A DNA stretch of 64,000 nt from an uncultured virus (IMG/VR IMGVR_UViG_3300035208_001228) (taxonomy: Duplodnaviria; Heunggongvirae; Uroviricota; Caudoviricetes). Positions 2,531 to 46,605 of this stretch are shown here, piece after piece. The stretch lies in the IMG/VR virus record IMGVR_UViG_3300035208_001228. One strand, written 5' to 3'. A program made the position numbers and the translations under genes. Every line of letters starts with the position of its first letter. Position 1 is the stretch's first letter. The notes under the pieces were generated by a model. That model worked only from the letters and a program-made list of their open reading frames with translations. It was not told where the DNA came from and searched no databases.

Positions 2531-3055
2531 ATGCTGACATTCAAGAAAACAACCCGTGGCATGCACGAAGTGGATGACGGCTCCAAGTGGCTGGTAAGAG
2601 AAGCGCCCGTCTCTCTGCCCTGTACGCTGATCGGGCATAATTGCCACATCAAGGGCAAGACGGTCGATGTGCCTTGCGCTGAGTTGACCTTGCTACGTGC
2701 CTACGATTGCGGGATACGTGACGCGGGAAGCCATAGCAGGTGGTCAAGCAACGTGCGATATATCGTCTACGAATGGAAACCGACCTACGGGTGGCCGTCT
2801 ATCGTGATTGTCACCGACTGCGGAGGCGGCCCGTGTTATTGGACGGTTGACCAACTCGACTTCTACAACACGTGGGTTGCTCTGGCTGGCGTCATCGACG
2901 ACGCGACGGCGTGGGACTTGCTATCTGCCCTCACTGGCACGTATGACAAGGGATTCGGTGAAGGAAGTAAGAAGATGAGCACGTTGTTCCTGCAAGGCCG
3001 GTTGAAGCGGCGGAAGCGGCAGGGCGCGCACCACTTGGAAATTCTTCCTTCGTGA
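2531..3055 (+). CDS. Hypothetical protein
   Basis: AGGAG SD before ATG 2531; 174 aa ORF. Confidence 0.65.
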   Translation: MLTFKKTTRGMHEVDDGSKWLVREAPVSLPCTLIGHNCHIKGKTVDVPCAELTLLRAYDCGIRDAGSHSRWSSNVRYIVYEWKPTYGWPSIVIVTDCGGGPCYWTVDQLDFYNTWVALAGVIDDATAWDLLSALTGTYDKGFGEGSKKMSTLFLQGRLKRRKRQGAHHLEILPS

Positions 3056-3058
3056 AAC

Positions 3059-3086
3059 TTGACAACCATCCACAGTGGTGTATAAT
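3059..3086 (+). promoter_or_regulatory. sigma70-type promoter, family member 2
   Basis: TTGACA-accatccacagtggtg(16)-TATAAT. Confidence 0.85.
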
Positions 3087-3441
3087 TGAGTATTGGCACA
3101 TGAGGAGGAATTGCGTAGCACCTTCGGGGCTTGTTTGTGTGAAGTCAAAACAATTCTCAGGAGCAACAATGTCTTGTCTTGAAAAATGGTTGAGTCTGCC
3201 ACCGGGTGCGCTTGTCTCTTTCGACCGAGTGGCAGCCGTGAAGTTGGCCGATTGCGGCGTAGGAGAAGAAACATGATACGTGGTCCGCCTTAGCCGCAAC
3301 CCGCAAGCAAACGCGGATTGACTCAGAGAGAAAGACAGCCAGAGAGAACATAGCTTCCTATACCGCTGACCACGAAAGGGCGGCACCATGACACGCAAGT
3401 AAAACCTTGCAACCGGGCCACCGACTACCACCGCGATCTGA

Positions 3442-3470: not shown

Positions 3471-3878
3471 AACAGCGGGAGACAACAATGACAGCGGCAA
3501 CACTTTAGAGCGCTTGCGGAGGAGATTGCCAAGATTGGCAGCCACGCCGCGAGGAGGAAAGCGGCTGCCGCTGTCATTGCCGCGTGTGCGCGATTCAACC
3601 GGAACTTCAACACCGTTCAGTTCTGGAGGGCTTGCAACCTATGAATGATAAACAACGATTGAGACTTCGCTTTCTCGCCATCGCCGACCAGTTGCAGGCG
3701 TGTATCCGGGACGGCCGCGAGTTTGGCGAGGGCTACAAACAACTCGTCAAACTAGGCCGCGATCTGCGCCTCATTAACAAGGCGGGAAGATGACCTATCG
3801 CGCAGTCTATTGGACGCCGGCGTCGTGCTATGGCGTGGAGGAAATACCCGGATGACCATTCCCGAACGAGGTGACAGT

Positions 3879-4707: not shown

Positions 4708-4874
4708 GCAAGACAAAGACAAACCTTTGACTATTGAAATCCAGTATGGCGTGCGCGATGGACCGACTCACGGGAACCGCGTTGTCGATTGACGACCACG
4801 GCGAATACGGCAAGCCAAAGGTGGGCAAGTTCTTTGCCCTGAAACAACAGCAGAATTTGGCTAAGGAGAAATCT

Positions 4875-5114
4875 ATGGACATTGAAACATTGGTCAACAA
4901 GTTATGCGACCCAGTTGACTTTGCTGAGACGTATTGCGGGTGGGACTCTTCAGACTATTACGAGGAGTGTTTGCCGGACAGTGCCGGCGGTTGGATACCC
5001 GCCGACGGGTCCGACCGGTCAATTCACGACGCTGCAATGGACGCGGTACGGGAATGGGCGTCGGAAACAGCGGCCAATCTGGAAACACTTCGTGACGCCG
5101 TACAAGCATTCTAA
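4875..5114 (+). CDS. Very acidic small protein
   Basis: Bounded by two intergenic elements; D/E-rich. Confidence 0.65.
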   Translation: MDIETLVNKLCDPVDFAETYCGWDSSDYYEECLPDSAGGWIPADGSDRSIHDAAMDAVREWASETAANLETLRDAVQAF

Positions 5115-5296
5115 CAACGGCAGCATTCGGCTAAGGAGAAAACGCGATGAAACTCGACATCAGAATTGACTTAGCCAATGTGGCGTTCGGTGACGTGTCC
5201 GGCGTCGAGACAGCACGAATCCCGCGGCGGCAACGAAAGAAGCGGGTGCGGGTCGAGCGGCGTAACAACGACGGAAATTGACTCAGGAGAAACCAC

Positions 5297-40206: not shown

Positions 40207-40649
40207 GCACAGATGGGGGTGAAGCCGTACTTCTCGCAAAGACGGTAGGGATAAACAGGACCACGCGGGTCGAAGATCGTTCCGCGTTCGTAAGCCACAG
40301 CGTGTCCGGCCGCGTTTGTGTGTCCGGTAATGACGCCGCGTGTGCGTTCAACAATCCGCCGGAACCTCGCCATTGCCGCTTCCTCGCTCCCACCGTACAC
40401 AATGGTGTACGATGGAACGGTGAAGGCAGGGGCGTGGCGAGGGAACATCTCGAATGGCGTCACCGCACAGCCGCCCCGGCTCGCCGCATCAATGCACTCT
40501 TGGACGTGGAAACCTCGGCGTCGCATCGGGTCTTTCAGCGTTGGCCAGATGATTTCACTGCCGTCGTGGCCAATGTGTTTGATGAAGTCAGCGACATCTA
40601 TGCCAAGAACTATTGCAAAGGCAGTAGGTAAGCACGACCAATTGTTCAT
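40191..40649 (-). CDS. Papain-like/C39-like peptidase
   Basis: WSCLPTAFA, GHAVAY, IFDP. Confidence 0.5.
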   Translation of the reverse strand: MNNWSCLPTAFAIVLGIDVADFIKHIGHDGSEIIWPTLKDPMRRRGFHVQECIDAASRGGCAVTPFEMFPRHAPAFTVPSYTIVYGGSEEAAMARFRRIVERTRGVITGHTNAAGHAVAYERGTIFDPRGPVYPYRLCEKYGFTPICAWSIT

Positions 40650-41023
40650 TCAATTTCCTCAAGTAGTTTGTCGATGTCTGCTCGCGTTGGCAGTTTCCAG
40701 CTTTCCTTCACAAAGCTGCGCCAATTAGGCGGTGCGAATAGTTTGTCGTACTCTTCCTGAGTTGCTGCCGTGAGAATCCAAACGCCCAATCCAAACGACT
40801 CCCAGCGGGGCCACTTCCACTTCTGCGCCGTTGTGAAGGAGTACCGACCGGGGTTCTTCACGTCGATCCAGCGGCTGCCCCATTTCGGATGGTGTATGAA
40901 GATGTCCGGCAGACCCTGCTGGTACGCGTTGCCAATTAGGCGCTCGACGAGCCAGCCACGGGCGCGAAGGAACTCGATGAGGGCTGTCTGTATTTTGAAC
41001 TCTGGTCCGTGCTTACTTCGCAT
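40646..41023 (-). CDS. VRR-NUC-like nuclease
   Basis: EFKIQ, GLPD, WIDVK, Q. Confidence 0.75.
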   Translation of the reverse strand: MRSKHGPEFKIQTALIEFLRARGWLVERLIGNAYQQGLPDIFIHHPKWGSRWIDVKNPGRYSFTTAQKWKWPRWESFGLGVWILTAATQEEYDKLFAPPNWRSFVKESWKLPTRADIDKLLEEIE

Positions 41024-42924
41024 TTAGTGTTCGATCGGATAGAAGCCCAAAGAGAGCAGAACGCATAAGCTGCTTGAAGCGGGACCACTCCGTTTCCAAG
41101 CAGCCGGAACCACTCGGTTCGGGCCAGCCCATTAACCAGCCCATTAACCAGCCCACAAACACCGGGTTCAATCGCAGGCCAGAGGTGTCTTGGGACTTGG
41201 CCCCAGTCTCCATCTGGTCCAGGCGGGAAGAGACGGACACGGCCACGGCACCCAGCGGCTTCTGAATCTTCCGGCCTCTTGGCGTGTAGCCGCGCTGAAG
41301 GTTGGCTTCCGCTACTCGGCGGCCGCCGTTGGGCACGTTCGCCGTCAGCCAGAGTTTGACGACTCGCTGAACCTGGAGACTTAACGCCTCGTATTTGTCT
41401 CGGCTGTTGTACTGACACCGTTCCTCGGCCCGTGGAGTCGCCCACCGCGAGAATGAAGAGTCGTTCTCGCCTGTGACTAGCGCCGACTTCCTCCGCAGTA
41501 AAGAGTCCCGCCGCAACTTCGTAACCCATTGCTTGAAGATCACTGGCGACCTGATCGAACCCGAGGCTGAGGTGGCCGGGCACGTTTTCGAGAAATACGA
41601 TTGCCGGTTCAACTTCGCTAATGATTCGATTGACGTGCGGCCAAAGGTGCCGAGGATCGCTTGATCCACCTCGCTTGCCAGCGAGTGAGAAGGGCTGACA
41701 GTTATGGACGATGGCCCCGTCTGCAATGTAGGATTCGTCCTCATCAACTGAGATGTTGTACACGGTGCCAGTGCCGCAAGGCACATTTGATCGCACTCGC
41801 TTCCATCCATACTGTCCATCAATATGGGCCGAACAGTTCCTATCAGGGATGCTGGCAGTCCAGTAGGATCGTTGATTAACAGTTCTGCCTTCAATAATGT
41901 AGGTGGCTGGTCGTTGGACAAATCGCACTCCAGCCACGACTCCGTGGCCTCTTTGGGCAAGTAGAGCAACACTGAGGGCAAGAGATTTGCTTGTTGTGAT
42001 TGCTCGGGTGAAACTTCCTCTTCCACGGGCGTTTGGTTGTCGGCAACCGTCCCCAGCAAGGTAGCCGTCAAGTAAGGCTCTGATCTTTTCTCGCGGGAGT
42101 GCAAAGACCCAACCGGGGATACATTTTCCGTAAGCAAGGCGACCGAATTGTTGGAGGAACCGGTACAGGTTTGACCTTGTAATGTGGTATTTGTTTGTGG
42201 TCCGACCTGCGTCCTTAAAAGCGTGAAATCCGGCAGCGGTGATCCCTTGTTCGAGTTCTGGTGATTTATTGGCGTTGGCGCAAATAACAACTCTTCCGCC
42301 GTTGGGTCGTCCTTTTCTGTCAACAAGCCATCCGCAGGCAAGGTATCTTCCAACAAGCCACCAGAAGGAGACGGTATGTTGGTCCTCGTCAGTTGTCTCT
42401 GGCAAGACTTGAGATAGAAAGCACCCACTGAGGTCTTTGGCAGCGACCCATTCGGGTTTGCTATCTCCTCGCTTAACATAAAACGGATGCTCATCTGTTG
42501 TGATGATGCCAGGGACTCCACCAGCTTTGACTTGTCGAAGGGAGACATTCTCTCGCCGTTTTGTGTCTGTGACAGGTCGCCACCGACCGAGGTGTGTAAG
42601 GACTTGATCTCCAACAGCCACGGACTCAATCGGGATGTATCCACGCCCGGTGAGAATGTAGGTTCCTGCTGCGAAGCACGGGTAGCCCGCAGTGATGCAA
42701 TCCACTGCTCCACGCCACGGGTGGCCATTAAAGGTTCGCAAGTCCGTCCAAATAGGCGCTTGACCCAGGCAACCCGCTTCCATCGCCTCAACCAAGTAGT
42801 TGATGGCGAAGGCTTCCCACTCCACCCAACAGACTGTGCGAATCGGGATGATAAGTTGGAGACCCAGGTCGAGTCCTGCACCGCCGGAGCATAAGCTAAT
42901 GGAACATATACCCCCATTTAACAC
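40936..42924 (-). CDS. C5-cytosine methyltransferase (main frame) with intein
   Basis: LCSGGAG, GYP|CQPFS, ENV, RRER, GNGVVP; start probably GTG 42924. Confidence 0.9.
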   Translation of the reverse strand: MLNGGICSISLCSGGAGLDLGLQLIIPIRTVCWVEWEAFAINYLVEAMEAGCLGQAPIWTDLRTFNGHPWRGAVDCITAGYPCFAAGTYILTGRGYIPIESVAVGDQVLTHLGRWRPVTDTKRRENVSLRQVKAGGVPGIITTDEHPFYVKRGDSKPEWVAAKDLSGCFLSQVLPETTDEDQHTVSFWWLVGRYLACGWLVDRKGRPNGGRVVICANANKSPELEQGITAAGFHAFKDAGRTTNKYHITRSNLYRFLQQFGRLAYGKCIPGWVFALPREKIRALLDGYLAGDGCRQPNARGRGSFTRAITTSKSLALSVALLAQRGHGVVAGVRFVQRPATYIIEGRTVNQRSYWTASIPDRNCSAHIDGQYGWKRVRSNVPCGTGTVYNISVDEDESYIADGAIVHNCQPFSLAGKRGGSSDPRHLWPHVNRIISEVEPAIVFLENVPGHLSLGFDQVASDLQAMGYEVAAGLFTAEEVGASHRRERLFILAVGDSTGRGTVSVQQPRQIRGVKSPGSASRQTLADGERAQRRPPSSGSQPSARLHAKRPEDSEAAGCRGRVRLFPPGPDGDWGQVPRHLWPAIEPGVCGLVNGLVNGLARTEWFRLLGNGVVPLQAAYAFCSLWASIRSNTKCEVSTDQSSKYRQPSSSSFAPVAGSSSA
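41013..42917 (-). CDS. Fully overlapping +1-frame ORF, putative second MTase polypeptide
   Basis: AGGAG SD 6 nt before ATG; WATP; LNPVFVGWLMGW motif IX-like; 634 codons without a stop. Confidence 0.7.
   Translation of the reverse strand: MGVYVPLAYAPAVQDSTWVSNLSSRFAQSVGWSGKPSPSTTWLRRWKRVAWVKRLFGRTCEPLMATRGVEQWIASLRATRASQQEPTFSPGVDTSRLSPWLLEIKSLHTSVGGDLSQTQNGERMSPFDKSKLVESLASSQQMSIRFMLSEEIANPNGSLPKTSVGAFYLKSCQRQLTRTNIPSPSGGLLEDTLPADGLLTEKDDPTAEELLFAPTPINHQNSNKGSPLPDFTLLRTQVGPQTNTTLQGQTCTGSSNNSVALLTENVSPVGSLHSREKRSEPYLTATLLGTVADNQTPVEEEVSPEQSQQANLLPSVLLYLPKEATESWLECDLSNDQPPTLLKAELLINDPTGLPASLIGTVRPILMDSMDGSECDQMCLAALAPCTTSQLMRTNPTLQTGPSSITVSPSHSLASEVDQAILGTFGRTSIESLAKLNRQSYFSKTCPATSASGSIRSPVIFKQWVTKLRRDSLLRRKSALVTGENDSSFSRWATPRAEERCQYNSRDKYEALSLQVQRVVKLWLTANVPNGGRRVAEANLQRGYTPRGRKIQKPLGAVAVSVSSRLDQMETGAKSQDTSGLRLNPVFVGWLMGWLMGWPEPSGSGCLETEWSRFKQLMRSALFGLLSDRTLNAK
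41701..42678 (-). mobile_element. 326-aa intein with LAGLIDADG-type endonuclease, inserted before the catalytic Cys
   Basis: CFAAGT..TDEHPF..LLDGYLAGDG..VYNISV..IVHN|C. Confidence 0.95.
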
Positions 42925-42926
42925 TC

Positions 42927-45233
42927 CTACTTTTCGGCCCAACTGCCAGCGTTTTGGAGCCAATCCATACCGATCAATGGCACCTTGTCCCGGAACGACT
43001 CGACGCCTTCCTTGACAGTGTCTCTGACACGGTCGCTGAGTGTAGGCTGGTGGACGGTCAGCAACTCGTCGTGGACCTGCATGATCGCCACTTGCCAGTC
43101 ATTGACACCAGCCGGCTGCAAGTCCCACACGCGGCGCTGTACGGCCTTGGTAATCGCGGCACCGAAGCCCTGAATCACATGGTTGCCGGCCGACCGCATG
43201 GAGGCTGCCTGAATGGCGAACGCGGCCCCGTAAAGTGCGCTGGCGACCGCGCCACCGGCCGTCTGCACGCGATCACGTCGCATGACCTTGACCGGGCAGT
43301 CCTTCCACTCGCGCGGCGGTCTTCGAGCTAACTCGAAGAGTGCTGCACAGATTTTATTCTCAAGGGTGTAGTAACGGCGGAACCCGAGGGCGGTCTCGAT
43401 GTACTCGGCCGGCTCGCTCCAGACAACCTGGCTGCCGATGCCGCCAGGCTGGGACATGGAGCAGAACATCTTGAAGATTTTCTGCCGACAGGCTTCGACG
43501 ACTGGGTATCGTTTGGCGAAGTCCGCATAGGCCGCCTTGGCACGCTCCTCGGTCACGCCAAGTTTGGCGACCAACGTCTGCCAGTTGCCGCCATACAGCA
43601 TAGCGAAGATGCCACGCTTTCCCTTGTCGTACCAATCGTCTTTCGACTTGGCCGAGGCAAGCACCTGCTCGTAGGTCAGACCGGACAGCTTTGCTCCAAA
43701 TTGGGCGTGAATCTTCCAGCCGGATTCAAGGTCGCGTCGAAGATTAGGATCGTTGTAGACCGCGTCCGCGAGTGTCACCTCGAACGAGGAAAAGTCGCCA
43801 AGACTAAGCTGTTTCCCTTCCCACGCCAGGGGGAACTGTCGGCGTACTTCTTGCGACCGCTTGACACCCATCGCGTTCAAGCCGTCAGCCCCGGCCATGC
43901 GGCCGGACAGTGAACCAATGACCACGAAACTGGCGTGGAACTTGCCCGCCCGCCGCAGCTTGCGGTACAACTCCACTTCCTTGGCGGCGAACTTGACATC
44001 CAGCACCTCTTGGGCTCGCTTGGCCGCCGGATGCTTCCCCGGCGTGCTGCACCGCAGGCAGCCGGCCCCGTCGCATTTCGAGCACACCTCGTCGCCGATC
44101 TGCCAGTCGGCGACGGCCAGCAGGTTGGCCTTCTTGGTGCTCTCTTCTAAGACAAGACGCTCCATGTCATCCATGCACTCGTAGATGTATGAGCGCACAT
44201 TAGATGGCTTGTTGATGTTGACCGGCGAGGCGGCGACCACAGCCTTCGCCTGTGTTTCAAGTTGCTCGACACCTGGAAGATCAATCTTGAAGCCGTGCCA
44301 CCGGACGGCGGCGACCATGCACGCCAGGACCGAGTCGTCGTCATCTGGCTCAGGCTTGCCGAAGTATTCGTCGAGTTCGCGGGTGTAGACAATGTCGTCG
44401 CGCGCGTACTCGCGCGCAGGTCCATTCGAGTGCCAATGGTCAATGTGGTGCTGAACAACGCCGGGCCAGGTCTTGCCGACTTCCTTGCCGTCCTTATGAA
44501 CACCCCAATCAGGCCCGTGCGAAATGGCCAAGGCGGTCGGAGCATACCCCAATTCCTTGGGCAGATATTTCCGGTCAAGTTCGACATCCTCGAAGTGGTA
44601 CTTCGGCTTGTGGCCAAGAACATACTCGGCCAGGAACTTGAGACCGGACGCTGCACTGAACCGCAGCACTACGTCCTTGAAGTTCGTGTCGAACTCGCCG
44701 TCGTGGTTCTTCCTATCAAATACCTGCCAATGAGGCGCATCCCTATCGGCGCGCTTGGCGAAGTAGATGCCGTCGATCTGGATGCGGCTCTCTAGCTCAT
44801 GTGCGAGCACGTACGCCAACGCGGTCGGCACACGCTTAATCCTGATGTCGTCGCGCGCCATCAACGATTGGAACGGCCCCTTACGGGCATGAAGCATCAG
44901 GTCGAGACAACTACGTGGACGCAGACAAGGGCCGTTTTGCGCCTCTGGCTCAAGGGCGGCAATCTCATCAATGTGCTGCTCGGGAATCCAATCACGCGGG
45001 CACAGCCGAAACGTCGTATAGCATTTGCACAACATGAACATGTCGAACGCGGCATTGAAGAACACAACCGTGTGCTTCAGAAACCACTCGATCAGGTCCA
45101 GTGTATCGCCTATCGGCCGCTTCCAAGGTTCATACAGAACAATGTCACCGCCTTCCACCACGTACTGGAATAGTACCGGCATCCCGTGAAGACCGCAGGT
45201 TTCTGTATCCAGTATGAGCCTGGGGGGCGCCAT
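42927..45233 (-). CDS. polA: Family A DNA polymerase with 3'-5' exonuclease
   Basis: DTET, FNAAFD, YARDD, DFSSFE, K...F..LYG, QVHDE. Confidence 0.92.
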   Translation of the reverse strand: MAPPRLILDTETCGLHGMPVLFQYVVEGGDIVLYEPWKRPIGDTLDLIEWFLKHTVVFFNAAFDMFMLCKCYTTFRLCPRDWIPEQHIDEIAALEPEAQNGPCLRPRSCLDLMLHARKGPFQSLMARDDIRIKRVPTALAYVLAHELESRIQIDGIYFAKRADRDAPHWQVFDRKNHDGEFDTNFKDVVLRFSAASGLKFLAEYVLGHKPKYHFEDVELDRKYLPKELGYAPTALAISHGPDWGVHKDGKEVGKTWPGVVQHHIDHWHSNGPAREYARDDIVYTRELDEYFGKPEPDDDDSVLACMVAAVRWHGFKIDLPGVEQLETQAKAVVAASPVNINKPSNVRSYIYECMDDMERLVLEESTKKANLLAVADWQIGDEVCSKCDGAGCLRCSTPGKHPAAKRAQEVLDVKFAAKEVELYRKLRRAGKFHASFVVIGSLSGRMAGADGLNAMGVKRSQEVRRQFPLAWEGKQLSLGDFSSFEVTLADAVYNDPNLRRDLESGWKIHAQFGAKLSGLTYEQVLASAKSKDDWYDKGKRGIFAMLYGGNWQTLVAKLGVTEERAKAAYADFAKRYPVVEACRQKIFKMFCSMSQPGGIGSQVVWSEPAEYIETALGFRRYYTLENKICAALFELARRPPREWKDCPVKVMRRDRVQTAGGAVASALYGAAFAIQAASMRSAGNHVIQGFGAAITKAVQRRVWDLQPAGVNDWQVAIMQVHDELLTVHQPTLSDRVRDTVKEGVESFRDKVPLIGMDWLQNAGSWAEK

Positions 45234-46605
45234 ATTCACAGCCACCTCCAAATACGACAGTGTCGGATGGCGGAAATCGTAACCTCAGACACTTGACAAT
45301 TCTGACAATTACTGTCTATGAATCGTATCCTCGTCTCAACAGGCTTTCCGGCGAGTTGGCAAACGACAATGGCGAAGTATCTGCGTTTCCGTATCTGGAA
45401 CGCGACACCCATCGCAACTAGTGCGTCGTAAAACTGGTCATCGACGATCGCGTACTTGCCCTGCGTCAGCCGTACACAGCCCATCGACGGGAGGACTATC
45501 TCGGCTCCCATCACACGTCGCAGTGTCGTGCATGGCACGACCACTCCGCTGAAGTCCAACACCCCTATCTCACCGCGTCGCCGATATGCGCGATACATAG
45601 CAACATGACTCTCGAAGGCCGGCACCTCGGGATAGAGTGGGCATGTTGGGTCATGCCACCGGCCTGGATGAACGCGGAACTTAATCGCCATCAACTACCC
45701 TCAGCAGTTCCTCGACCTCACGGCAGGCTTCATTCCATCGAATGCTCTGGCTGGATGTCATCAGTTCAGTGTTCTTCGCAAGCCCGTAGTCGTTCAACGT
45801 GCGGAGCACCTTCAATGCTCGCTGCCCTGGCCCGAACGCCCTGAGGAGTTCCATGCAGAAGGCGATTGCCATCTTTCCTTGCTCGGACTCGGGATCGAAT
45901 GGAGCAAGTCGCGTGCTAGGGTCCACACGCTTGACGATGTCTTCGCAGACTTTGACAAGTTCAAGTGGCGTCATTGCTTCCTCTTGGTGAAGGTGCAGAT
46001 GATCTCCTCGCCCTCGGCCACAGGGCCGAGATGTTCGAGAATGCGATGCTCGATGGCATGGAGCGGGTCAAGGGTGCAAAAGTTCTCCCGCGTGAAGCAA
46101 AGACAGCAGGCAGGGTCAGCCCCCACGAGGAAGGTGATCCGCGTGTTCTCCTGCAATTCGAGATGGCTGATGTAGCCCTCCATCAGCCTGCAACAGAGCG
46201 AGGCACTGACACGCCGATACCAGAGTGCTGTCCAGAGAGCAGCGGCCTTGCGCGCGATAACCTCGGTCGTGTGGCCAATATCAATGTAACCATACGTGTC
46301 CGAGAAGCCCCAACCATAGAGACCGGCCATCATGGCGTCAGTGACAGGCCCCGCACCGTCCGCAAGTTTGTCACCCTGCGTTACAGTGACCCCGTACTTC
46401 TTGAGGACCGCTTCATAGTCCCAGGCGTCAGGAATACCGTCCTTCCAATCGTCGAGAAGGCTGATGCCAAGCGCATCCCCGACAAACTCGCGTCCCCTCT
46501 GGCTTTCCAGAAAAGTCTCCAACCGCGTCTCCACTTCCCAGCAGTTGTTGCACCGCTTGGTGCCGAGATAAGGTGTCGGCTTGCCGCAGATTTCGCAGGG
46601 GATGG

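Follow-up and report, generated by a model that had tools for sequence, protein, structure and literature searches.

Locus and overlapping reading frames

The stretch of DNA analysed here, called the window throughout, is 64,000 nucleotides (nt) long and belongs to an uncultured virus of the Caudoviricetes (IMG/VR record IMGVR_UViG_3300035208_001228). On its minus strand, in a phage replication module, lies a gene for a C5 DNA methyltransferase (methylase) that is interrupted by an intein. The same DNA contains a second open reading frame (ORF), which lies in the +1 frame, begins beside the start of the methylase and stays open through the entire intein. The methylase frame is here called frame A and its product the alpha chain; the +1 frame is called frame B and its proposed product the beta chain. 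The features of the locus are collected in Table 1. The methyltransferase motifs in both frames carry the numbers used for this enzyme family.

Table 1. Positions of the two reading frames, their motifs, the intein and the neighbouring features in the window.
Feature	Position	Strand	Basis or remark
Frame A, C5-methyltransferase ORF with intein, as listed (675 amino acids)	40936..42963	minus	ORF list
Frame A from its likely start (alpha chain)	40936..42924	minus	Pfam, motif coordinates, alignment with relatives
Frame B, 634-codon ORF, +1 of frame A (proposed beta chain)	41013..42917	minus	ORF list
Intein, 326 amino acids, 978 nt	41701..42678	minus	Hint plus LAGLIDADG-type middle
N-extein of alpha, motif I to GYP	42679..42924	minus	Frame B open
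C-extein, CQPFS (motif IV) to RRERLF (motif VIII)	41428..41700	minus	Frame B open, its protein not conserved
Motif I, SLCSGGAG	42874-42897	minus	Frame A
ENV motif	41575-41595	minus	Frame A
Motif VIII, RRERLF	41455-41475	minus	Frame A
LFPPGPD	41212-41232	minus	Frame A
Motif X, LLGNGVVPLQAAYAF	41059-41103	minus	Frame A
WATP	41433-41447	minus	Frame B, C-terminal part
Motif IX-like segment, LNPVFVGWLMGWLMGWP	41121-41171	minus	Frame B; nowhere else in the family is a frame-B codon-position signature clear
Shine-Dalgarno sequence AGGAG, 6 nt before the frame-B ATG (42915-42917)	42924..42928	minus	Overlaps the frame-A GTG
12-nt tandem duplication, 2.7 copies, 100% match	41124..41155	.	Tandem Repeats Finder
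Family-A DNA polymerase gene (polA), upstream neighbour	42927..45251	minus
Endonuclease-like gene, downstream neighbour	40646..41023		A sigma-factor-like gene also lies downstream

Frame A matches the Pfam family DNA_methylase with an E value of 3.1e-24, over motifs IV to VIII. Its likely start is a GTG at 42924 (42922-42924), the only frame-A start nearby, which overlaps the Shine-Dalgarno sequence; the ATG of frame B lies 7 nt downstream of it. Frame B is wholly contained in the frame-A ORF, and the second polypeptide would thus be encoded in an alternative frame of the alpha gene. A preliminary description of the DNA had placed the two starts about 7 nt apart with complete overlap of the frames, and the ORF coordinates bear this out. 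It had further credited frame B with the better Shine-Dalgarno sequence, which agrees with the AGGAG found at a spacing of 6 nt, and with a motif IX-like segment, which was recovered as LNPVFVGWLMGWLMGWP and matches phrog_1008, annotated as DNA methyltransferase (E 6.7e-7). The PHROG matches of frame B, to phrog_27243 (3.8e-11) and phrog_1008 (6.7e-7), lie at residues 531-625 and 565-599 of its product; the frame-B ORF as a whole has no match in Pfam.

The intein and its +1 frame

The intein starts with CFAAG and ends with IVHN, after which frame A continues with CQPFS. It therefore has a cysteine at position 1 and a His-Asn end, and the first residue of the C-extein is the catalytic cysteine of the methylase. 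The element splits the PC/Q motif, between GYP and CQPFS, directly before that cysteine. It carries the sequence TDEH, which fits the TxxH block. In Pfam, Hint_2 is matched with 35.8 bits, above its cut-off of 28.4, while Intein_splicing (18.3 bits, cut-off 35.8) and LAGLIDADG_3 (20.1 bits, cut-off 22.5) are matched below theirs. Relatives of the gene that have no intein read GYPCQPFSLAG without interruption; the insertion is thus precise and in frame, and the exteins rejoin to a conserved motif. The intein is predicted to leave the alpha chain by protein splicing.

The first LAGLIDADG-like motif (~42330-42370) reads GRYLACGW in the window and in the related locus L001, and GRYLADGW in four other members of the same intein clade. 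An acidic residue has its role in the LAGLIDADG motif; with a cysteine in that place, the homing endonuclease may be inactive here.

The intein has no stop codon in the +1 frame and 17 in the +2 frame, and the absence of +1 stops over its 978 nt, as given in the preliminary description, is therefore real. When synonymous codons are shuffled within the intein, 3.5 stops are expected in the +1 frame, and the probability of finding none is 0.004. This null model is conservative, because the codon pool that it draws on is itself biased. Over the whole overlap of 635 codons the same procedure predicts 9.4 stops, and none of 3000 simulations was stop-free. If the codons are instead redrawn from 29 other long ORFs of the window, the intein is expected to contain 7.9 stops (standard deviation 2.4, minimum 2) and the whole span 13.8, and again none of 3000 draws of the intein was free of them. 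In the +1 frame of those 29 ORFs there are 18-69 stops per 1000 codons, and not one of the ORFs is free of them. The codon-shuffle check proposed beforehand thus upholds a depletion of +1 stops.

Codon choice in the intein fits the open frame. Leucine is written as CTY in 17 of 22 cases, against 40% in the other genes of the window, in line with the preference for CTY noted earlier. Eleven codons of the NTA/NTG type are present, none of them in a context that would make a stop. It had also been remarked that the 326 residues contain no methionine. This is true of the window intein, and does not extend to the five other stop-free inteins described below, which contain 2-6 methionines each; the lack of methionine was therefore rejected as an adaptation.

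Homologous inteins

A tblastn search with the intein matched 128 phage records, 112 of which cover at least 80% of it. Nineteen inteins were fetched from these records, and two (L109 and L110) were dropped since they have stops in the intein frame itself. In 16 of the remaining 17, the +1 frame contains 2-36 stops, close to the expectation from shuffling each intein's own codons. The hosts of these 16 are C5 methylases of mycobacteriophages, of Propionibacterium phage B22, of P1-like phages and of jumbo phages, together with an NrdD of a Lactococcus phage, a thymidylate synthase of an Aeromonas phage and a terminase of a crAss-like phage. Several RefSeq mycobacteriophage records (NC_028946, NC_011287, NC_051716 and others) name the intein-containing methylase "anaerobic ribonucleoside reductase large subunit", while the GenBank versions call it a DNA methylase or helicase; the RefSeq name was probably carried over through the similarity of its intein to NrdD inteins.

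In viral and genome contigs, the intein used as a single-protein query found one partial locus and three N-terminal fragments, respectively. A scan of the viral contigs with an alignment of two inteins found 71 loci. The 39 full-length ones were analysed, leaving out partial matches and four rows that are copies of L132. The +1 frame has 3-36 stops in 35 of the 39, a count that includes L116, L125, L126 and L128; the range taken for L125 is the same as that of the phage record L102.

The stop-free inteins are those of the window, L001/L113, L114, L115, L117 and L094. They belong to a group of seven closest inteins that form one clade (support 93/97) whose inner order is not resolved, and among the homologs analysed a stop-free +1 frame is found in this clade only. 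The hosts of four (window, L001/L113, L114 and L117) are clear two-frame methylases, in the sense developed in the next section. In L001, L114 and L117, frame B has an N-terminus of the W-I-I-P type and also contains WPTP repeats and LNPxWVExLMG, and motif X is read in frame A. L001 and L117 begin with ATGTG, and in L114 the two starts are further apart. L117 has 43% GC and an expectation of 6.4 stops in the +1 frame of its intein.

The seventh member of the clade, L116, is 50% identical to the window intein and lies in a single-frame methylase, whose exteins have +1 stops. Its intein has 8 stops in the +1 frame, where 9.4 are expected, and contains 32 NTA/NTG codons; the stop-free inteins contain 8-19. 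Kinship of the inteins alone does not predict openness; the layout of the host gene does, in five of the seven.

A family of two-frame methylases

The relatives of the host gene were sampled as 8 loci from viral contigs and 79 from metagenomes (taken from the best 80 of 558 relatives). Nearly all have frames A and B open along approximately the whole gene and a broken third frame. Motif X is found in the frame-A ORF in 70 of 82 distinct loci, a motif of the LNPxFVxWLMG type in the frame-B ORF in 64 of 82, and both together in 62 of 82. The loci outside these tallies are mostly truncated contigs or were missed by the search pattern. Wherever the pattern recognised motif I, frame B is open back to it (59 of 59 loci). 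All 37 distinct N-domains are free of +1 stops, where the expectation summed over 17 representatives is 19.1.

The starts of the two frames are likewise a feature of the family. They are paired at a distance of 2 or 4 nt in 56 of 60 distinct loci: in 30, an NTG for frame B overlaps a GTG for frame A as NTGTG, and in 26 the frame-A start precedes the frame-B start by 4 nt. A purine-rich stretch lies upstream of the paired starts in the upstream strings inspected. The window is a variant, with ATGGGG and a GTG 7 nt upstream. The N-terminus of the frame-B product, MxW[LI]..P, is conserved in a stretch where frame A shows no conservation.

Two cultured phages have comparable genes. In Synechococcus phage Yong-M2-251 the gene is annotated as a single coding sequence (CDS), which is that of frame A, and frame B stays open along its full length. 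In Klebsiella virus KpV2811, a +1 frame containing WPTP and LMGFP is open from 111 nt into the CDS to beyond its end. The window gene thus shares its two-frame layout with a whole, very large phage family.

Conservation of the two frames

In order to see which frame is conserved as protein, the conservation of the three codon positions was followed along a codon alignment of 17 representatives. Between motifs I and VIII, conservation is lowest at the third position of frame A. Across PTFVEWLMGWPLGWT the third position of frame B is the least conserved, and past motif IX, in motif X, that of frame A is so again. The signature is of the B type over LNPxFVEWLMGWP and of the A type elsewhere, except in the poorly aligned WxTP-repeat region of frame B, between motifs VIII and IX, where it is unclear. 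This WxTP-repeat region is the probable target-recognition region (TRD) and would belong to the beta chain.

A comparison of pairs gives a similar picture for the N-domain. In the two main divergence bins, identity in frame B is 0.36 and 0.39, against 0.31 and 0.37 in the +2 frame used as a control. Purifying selection on the frame-B protein is seen for the motif IX stretch, and is not seen for the intein or the N-domain. Frame B is conserved as protein in its C-terminal part only, and its first ~165 codons are simply kept open.

Within the intein, the inteins of the window and of L001 are 64% identical in frame A and share the third base at 47% of their identical residues. Identity in frame B is 0.37, against 0.34 in the +2 control; for two other pairs of inteins the values are 0.28 against 0.25 and 0.22 against 0.22. 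A protein-coding function of the +1 frame of the intein was rejected on the basis of these three pairs, in which its identity is about that of the control. The composition of the +1 reading is also close to what synonymous codons of frame A would give: serine, threonine, proline, glutamine, asparagine and glycine together make up 0.48 of it, against 0.47 in synonymous shuffles, hydrophobicity is also close, and the net charge is -17, against -14.8 (standard deviation 1.3). The constraint on frame B in the intein is on openness only, with no conserved +1 protein.

The division of the conserved parts between the frames corresponds to sequences found elsewhere in one chain. In a BLASTP alignment (E 2e-4), the window frame-B sequence GLRLNPVFVGWLMGW is matched by GRRLSARFVEWMMGLPDGW from the single-chain methylase of phage B22, in which motif X follows motif IX in one frame. 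Similarly, for the intein-less relative L002, frame B matches positions 41-276 of the phrog_1008 profile and frame A matches positions 287-317.

Predicted fold and association of the chains

In an AlphaFold2 prediction of the alpha chain of L002 alone, residues 1-170 and 273-293 fold, and residues 172-272 have predicted local distance difference test (pLDDT) scores below 45. A model of the complex was made from the alpha chain and the C-terminal 149 residues of beta; it is therefore a model of this intein-less relative and not of the window proteins. It scored 0.80, against 0.00 for the best of three controls, and passed a mark that 116 of 157 solved complexes attain, as do 2 of 215 mismatched pairs. 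At least 65% of contacts are common to the runs, and the pLDDT of the partner is at least 58. In the model, the motif IX-like helix of beta (residues 103-118) contacts residues 227-253 of alpha, which contain the LFPPGP..W segment, and residues 264-285, which contain motif X. The model, which was built with our own alignments and may owe its score to a resemblance to solved single-chain C5 methyltransferases, supports binding of alpha to beta.

Proposed mechanism and alternatives

On the basis of these observations we think it likely that the gene encodes a two-chain C5 methyltransferase from two fully overlapping frames, and that the intein has been kept open in the +1 frame so that the beta chain can be read through it. 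According to this proposal, one mRNA with one ribosome-binding site would serve two start codons. Frame A would give a catalytic alpha chain with motifs I to VIII, an unstructured middle, the LFPPGP..W segment and motif X. Frame B would give a non-conserved leader extending across the catalytic part, followed by the WxTP region and the motif IX-like helix, and this helix would pack on motif X of alpha.

The intein would have entered frame A before the catalytic cysteine, and protein splicing would take it out of alpha again. Read in frame B, these 978 nt would be unspliceable, and ribosomes would read through N-extein, intein and C-extein. Only an intein without +1 stops would leave beta whole, and selection would therefore keep it stop-free, removing variants in which a +1 stop arises; the route to openness would be avoidance of NTA/NTG codons and of neighbours that turn them into stops. 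The outcome would be an insert of ~326 residues, rich in serine, threonine, proline and glutamine, in a dispensable leader of beta. Such an insert would be tolerable because the intein occupies a part of beta whose protein sequence is nowhere conserved. The proposal is built on the openness of both frames, its conservation in the family, the contrast with other inteins and the codon-position signatures. From these we infer the translation of frame B from the 5' ATG (with dual initiation and read-through), the assembly and activity of an alpha-beta enzyme, and the tolerance of the insert.

A number of observations weigh against this reading. Initiation of frame B at the 5' ATG is itself deduced from the sequence. 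The within-gene shuffle gives the window only a P of 0.004-0.007. All six stop-free inteins belong to one clade, and the number of independent events is therefore less than six. One of them, L094, comes from an UNVERIFIED fecal phage record with a methylase that is frameshifted near motif VIII: the intein is stop-free (0 stops, 5.4 expected), the host is not shown to be two-frame, and the exteins contain +1 stops in ordinary number (5, with 6.05 expected, and 2, with 3.86 expected). Another, L115, is weakly significant (0 stops against 2.7 expected, P 0.04) and lies in a methylase of a different type.

The C-terminal part of beta alone gives no confident fold in AlphaFold2 (mean pLDDT 56.8, predicted template modelling score 0.23), and a profile of 17 such parts finds no sequence in the PDB at E values up to 10. 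For the window, L114, L115 and L117, the C-terminal part of frame B is without a meaningful match in Pfam or NCBIfam at E values up to 1.

Finally, the window copy is unusual in three ways. At its start (42915-42929) it reads ATGGGG where the family has ATGTGG, so that the usual GTG of frame A is gone. The 12-nt duplication doubles WLMG in frame B, within motif IX, and LVNG in frame A; in relatives the unit occurs once. Frame A lacks its usual stop, extending ~40 codons past motif X (40936-41058) and 88 nt into the next gene, where in relatives it ends 8-10 codons after AAYAF. These three oddities could mean relaxed function of the window copy.

The alternative that survives best, and which we nevertheless regard as improbable, is that the stop-free +1 frame is a trait of the intein lineage, either a legacy of its earlier hosts or an aid to invading overlapping genes; in its strongest form, the intein would have a +1 product of its own. 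The single clade (93/97) is in its favour, as are L094, with its ordinary exteins, and L115, with its different type of methylase, and inteins with a homing endonuclease in another frame are described in a preprint (bioRxiv 10.1101/2025.01.02.630785). Against a product of this kind stands the comparison of pairs, in which frame-B identity equals the +2 control in all three and the third position of frame A is free, and the lack of any Pfam match to frame B, whose PHROG matches are confined to residues 531-625, outside the intein. Moreover, the open frame always extends into both exteins, and L116, a member of the clade, has lost the trait in a single-frame host.

Alongside selection by the host gene, L094 and L115 may mean that the trait is carried in part by the intein lineage, as a legacy of earlier two-frame hosts or as a pre-adaptation. 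A stronger version of this, which we put forward tentatively and hold to be rather doubtful, is that the clade is "transparent" in two frames as a heritable trait of a mobile element, which avoids +1 stops by its choice of codons, can thereby home into and persist in targets with overlapping genes, and keeps the trait long after moving to a single-frame host such as that of L094. Three types of host methylase are seen for the stop-free clade.

A second alternative is that the beta chain starts downstream of the intein, and that the openness upstream arose by chance or has no function. The conserved part of frame B is C-terminal, GTG and TTG codons are present in frame B after the intein (a further point against initiation at the 5' end), and the +1 segment TWPTSGM...LLPTP of phage B22 begins after +1 stops downstream of its intein; the gene for the short beta chain of M.EcoHK31I is internal too (PMC2836561). 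This alternative is nonetheless slightly less probable still than a lineage trait. Chance did not produce the openness in any of 3000 simulations, frame B reaches motif I unbroken in 59 of 59 loci, paired starts are seen in 56 of 60, and MxW[LI]..P at the N-terminus of frame B is conserved in a stretch where frame A shows no conservation. None of the candidate internal starts between the intein and WATP or motif IX has a Shine-Dalgarno sequence, and the 5' ATG alone has one.

The reading in which the intein has been selected for tolerance in two frames was already proposed in the preliminary description, and it is supported here. Two findings were named there as able to overturn it, namely that homologous inteins in ordinary genes are equally open in +1 and that the partner subunit starts after the intein. 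Both were looked for, and the proposal survives them: 16 of 17 phage-record homologs (2-36 stops) and 35 of 39 viral-contig homologs (3-36 stops) are not open, and no start with a Shine-Dalgarno sequence was found in frame B after the intein, the paired 5' starts being present in 56 of 60 loci.

It is very unlikely that a single polypeptide is made by programmed frameshifts (from A to B after motif VIII and from B to A before motif X), or that the gene is decaying or contains sequencing errors, even though the single-chain relative B22 holds motifs IX and X in one frame (LSARFVEWMMGLPDGW...LGNGVVP), the window copy has the oddities listed above (lost GTG start, WLMG duplication, extended C-terminus) and L003 and L005/L006 switch frame at a (CA)n tract, since frameshifting would leave unexplained why frame B is open upstream of motif VIII and frame A is open through the middle coded by frame B; no slippery site is known here, although conserved slippery sites were not searched for. 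Sequencing error was rejected outright, as the layout recurs across the set of 82 loci, in unrelated samples and in two cultured phages.

Relation to known systems

The nearest parallel to the proposed two-chain enzyme is M.EcoHK31I. PMC2836561 describes an alpha chain with motifs I-VIII as well as X, and a beta chain with motif IX, the latter encoded in another frame inside the alpha gene, reports that both chains are needed for activity, and places the TRD in alpha. The window gene is alike in this described layout: the second chain would be coded in the other frame inside alpha, with motifs I-VIII and X in alpha and a motif IX-like segment in beta. It differs from the published description in that frame B is co-extensive with frame A and starts beside it, most of beta being a non-conserved leader, and in that the WxTP-repeat region, the probable TRD, is in beta and not in alpha. 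The layout here is furthermore that of a large phage family, in which the window copy has an intein.

Hidden endonucleases provide a second parallel. ShiLan-type HNH insertions in mycobacteriophage methylases contain an out-of-frame homing endonuclease (PMC11855218), and inteins with an out-of-frame endonuclease are also described (bioRxiv 10.1101/2025.01.02.630785). As in the window, a mobile element in a phage methylase has two stop-free frames, one of which is read through as an insert. In those cases the second frame belongs to the element's own enzyme, whereas in the window it belongs to the host gene.

Inteins at the PC/Q site of single-frame phage C5 methyltransferases belong to the same intein family and are 25-36% identical to that of the window over their full length. 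Named examples are Tootsieroll gp68 (mycobacteriophage), B22 gp50, P1-like Dmt, and proteins of Erwinia and E. coli jumbo phages. Where the junction was inspected (B22 and 25 homologs in viral contigs), the insertion is at the same site before the catalytic cysteine. Unlike that of the window, the +1 frames of inteins in single-frame methyltransferases have 2-24 stops, as the shuffles predict.

Inteins in phage C5 methylases are already known (bioRxiv 10.1101/2025.01.02.630785). A literature search that covered neither REBASE nor subscription journals found no paper on an intein kept open in the second frame of its host gene, and none on a family-wide, co-extensive two-frame phage C5 methylase.

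The harmlessness ascribed to inteins comes from their splicing out of the protein, an escape that is valid in one reading frame only. A run of 326 codons that is bound to stay open and yet is free to mean nothing would be an unusual constraint on an element and its host gene. If confirmed, it would provide a natural measure of selection on openness apart from selection on protein sequence, and would show that the long leader of beta accepts an insert of 326 residues. It would also support the view that a very large family of phage methylases consists of two co-extensive genes annotated as one, a statement about annotation that is based on the one family member with a CDS placed on the frames, Synechococcus phage Yong-M2-251 (single CDS, frame A). 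The results bear on the calling of phage genes and on the invasion of dual-coded DNA by mobile elements. Should the doubtful proposal of heritable transparency be true, it would amount to an adaptation of a selfish element to dual-coded DNA, beyond purifying selection on the side of the host.

Neighbouring genes and further observations

The frame-A GTG at 42924 lies 2 nt past the stop codon of polA (TAG, 42927-42929), a position that suggests translational coupling to polA. The methylase mRNA is probably co-transcribed with polA, because no promoter- or terminator-like site was found on the minus strand between 40500 and 45600. At the other end, frame B stops at 41013, over the ATG region of the next gene, which starts at 41023. 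A blastn comparison of the region with phage records gave short patches only, with a coverage of at most 3%.

The L001 gene contains, in addition to its intein, a 105-codon frame-B ORF for an HNH-type endonuclease (4823-5140; phrog_2340, phrog_1271), inserted after LMGW and before motif X. This insert has no stop in frame A (0 against 3.0 expected, P 0.016). The arrangement is the mirror image of the intein case and resembles the hidden HNH of the ShiLan type (PMC11855218). L001 therefore combines both situations, an intein and a frame-B HNH ORF that is read through by frame A.

The methylase of L115 looks otherwise like a single-chain enzyme, and its flanks show no significant depletion of +1 stops. 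Its +1 ORF (1938-2351) covers motifs IV-VIII, starting 77 codons before the intein, and its end, ...ECSLSDILE..RFSLSPKACRGILRRAERRGRRLP, matches phrog_16143, annotated as DNA methyltransferase (E 1.2e-7). The ORF may represent another family of ORFs overprinted on methylase genes.

Midway through their two-frame methylase genes, L005 has a (CA)9 tract (3704-3721) and L003 a (CA)n tract of ~30 nt (~3752-3781). Both frames shift by one past the tract, and removal of one unit from L005 would restore both chains. Across the gene, L006 does not differ from L005 in any of the three reading frames. The tract is possibly a phase-variable switch, or a slip in assembly.

Two other phage C5 methylase genes have different layouts. 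In phage B22 (L096, ~2900-3100), the +1 segment TWPTSGM...LLPTP begins after the intein, and motifs IX and X are in frame A. In KpV2811 (L089, 1068-2063), WPTP...LMGFP is in the +1 frame, in a layout that differs from that of the window family. Taken together, these sequences suggest that there may be several kinds of interleaved two-frame methylase genes.

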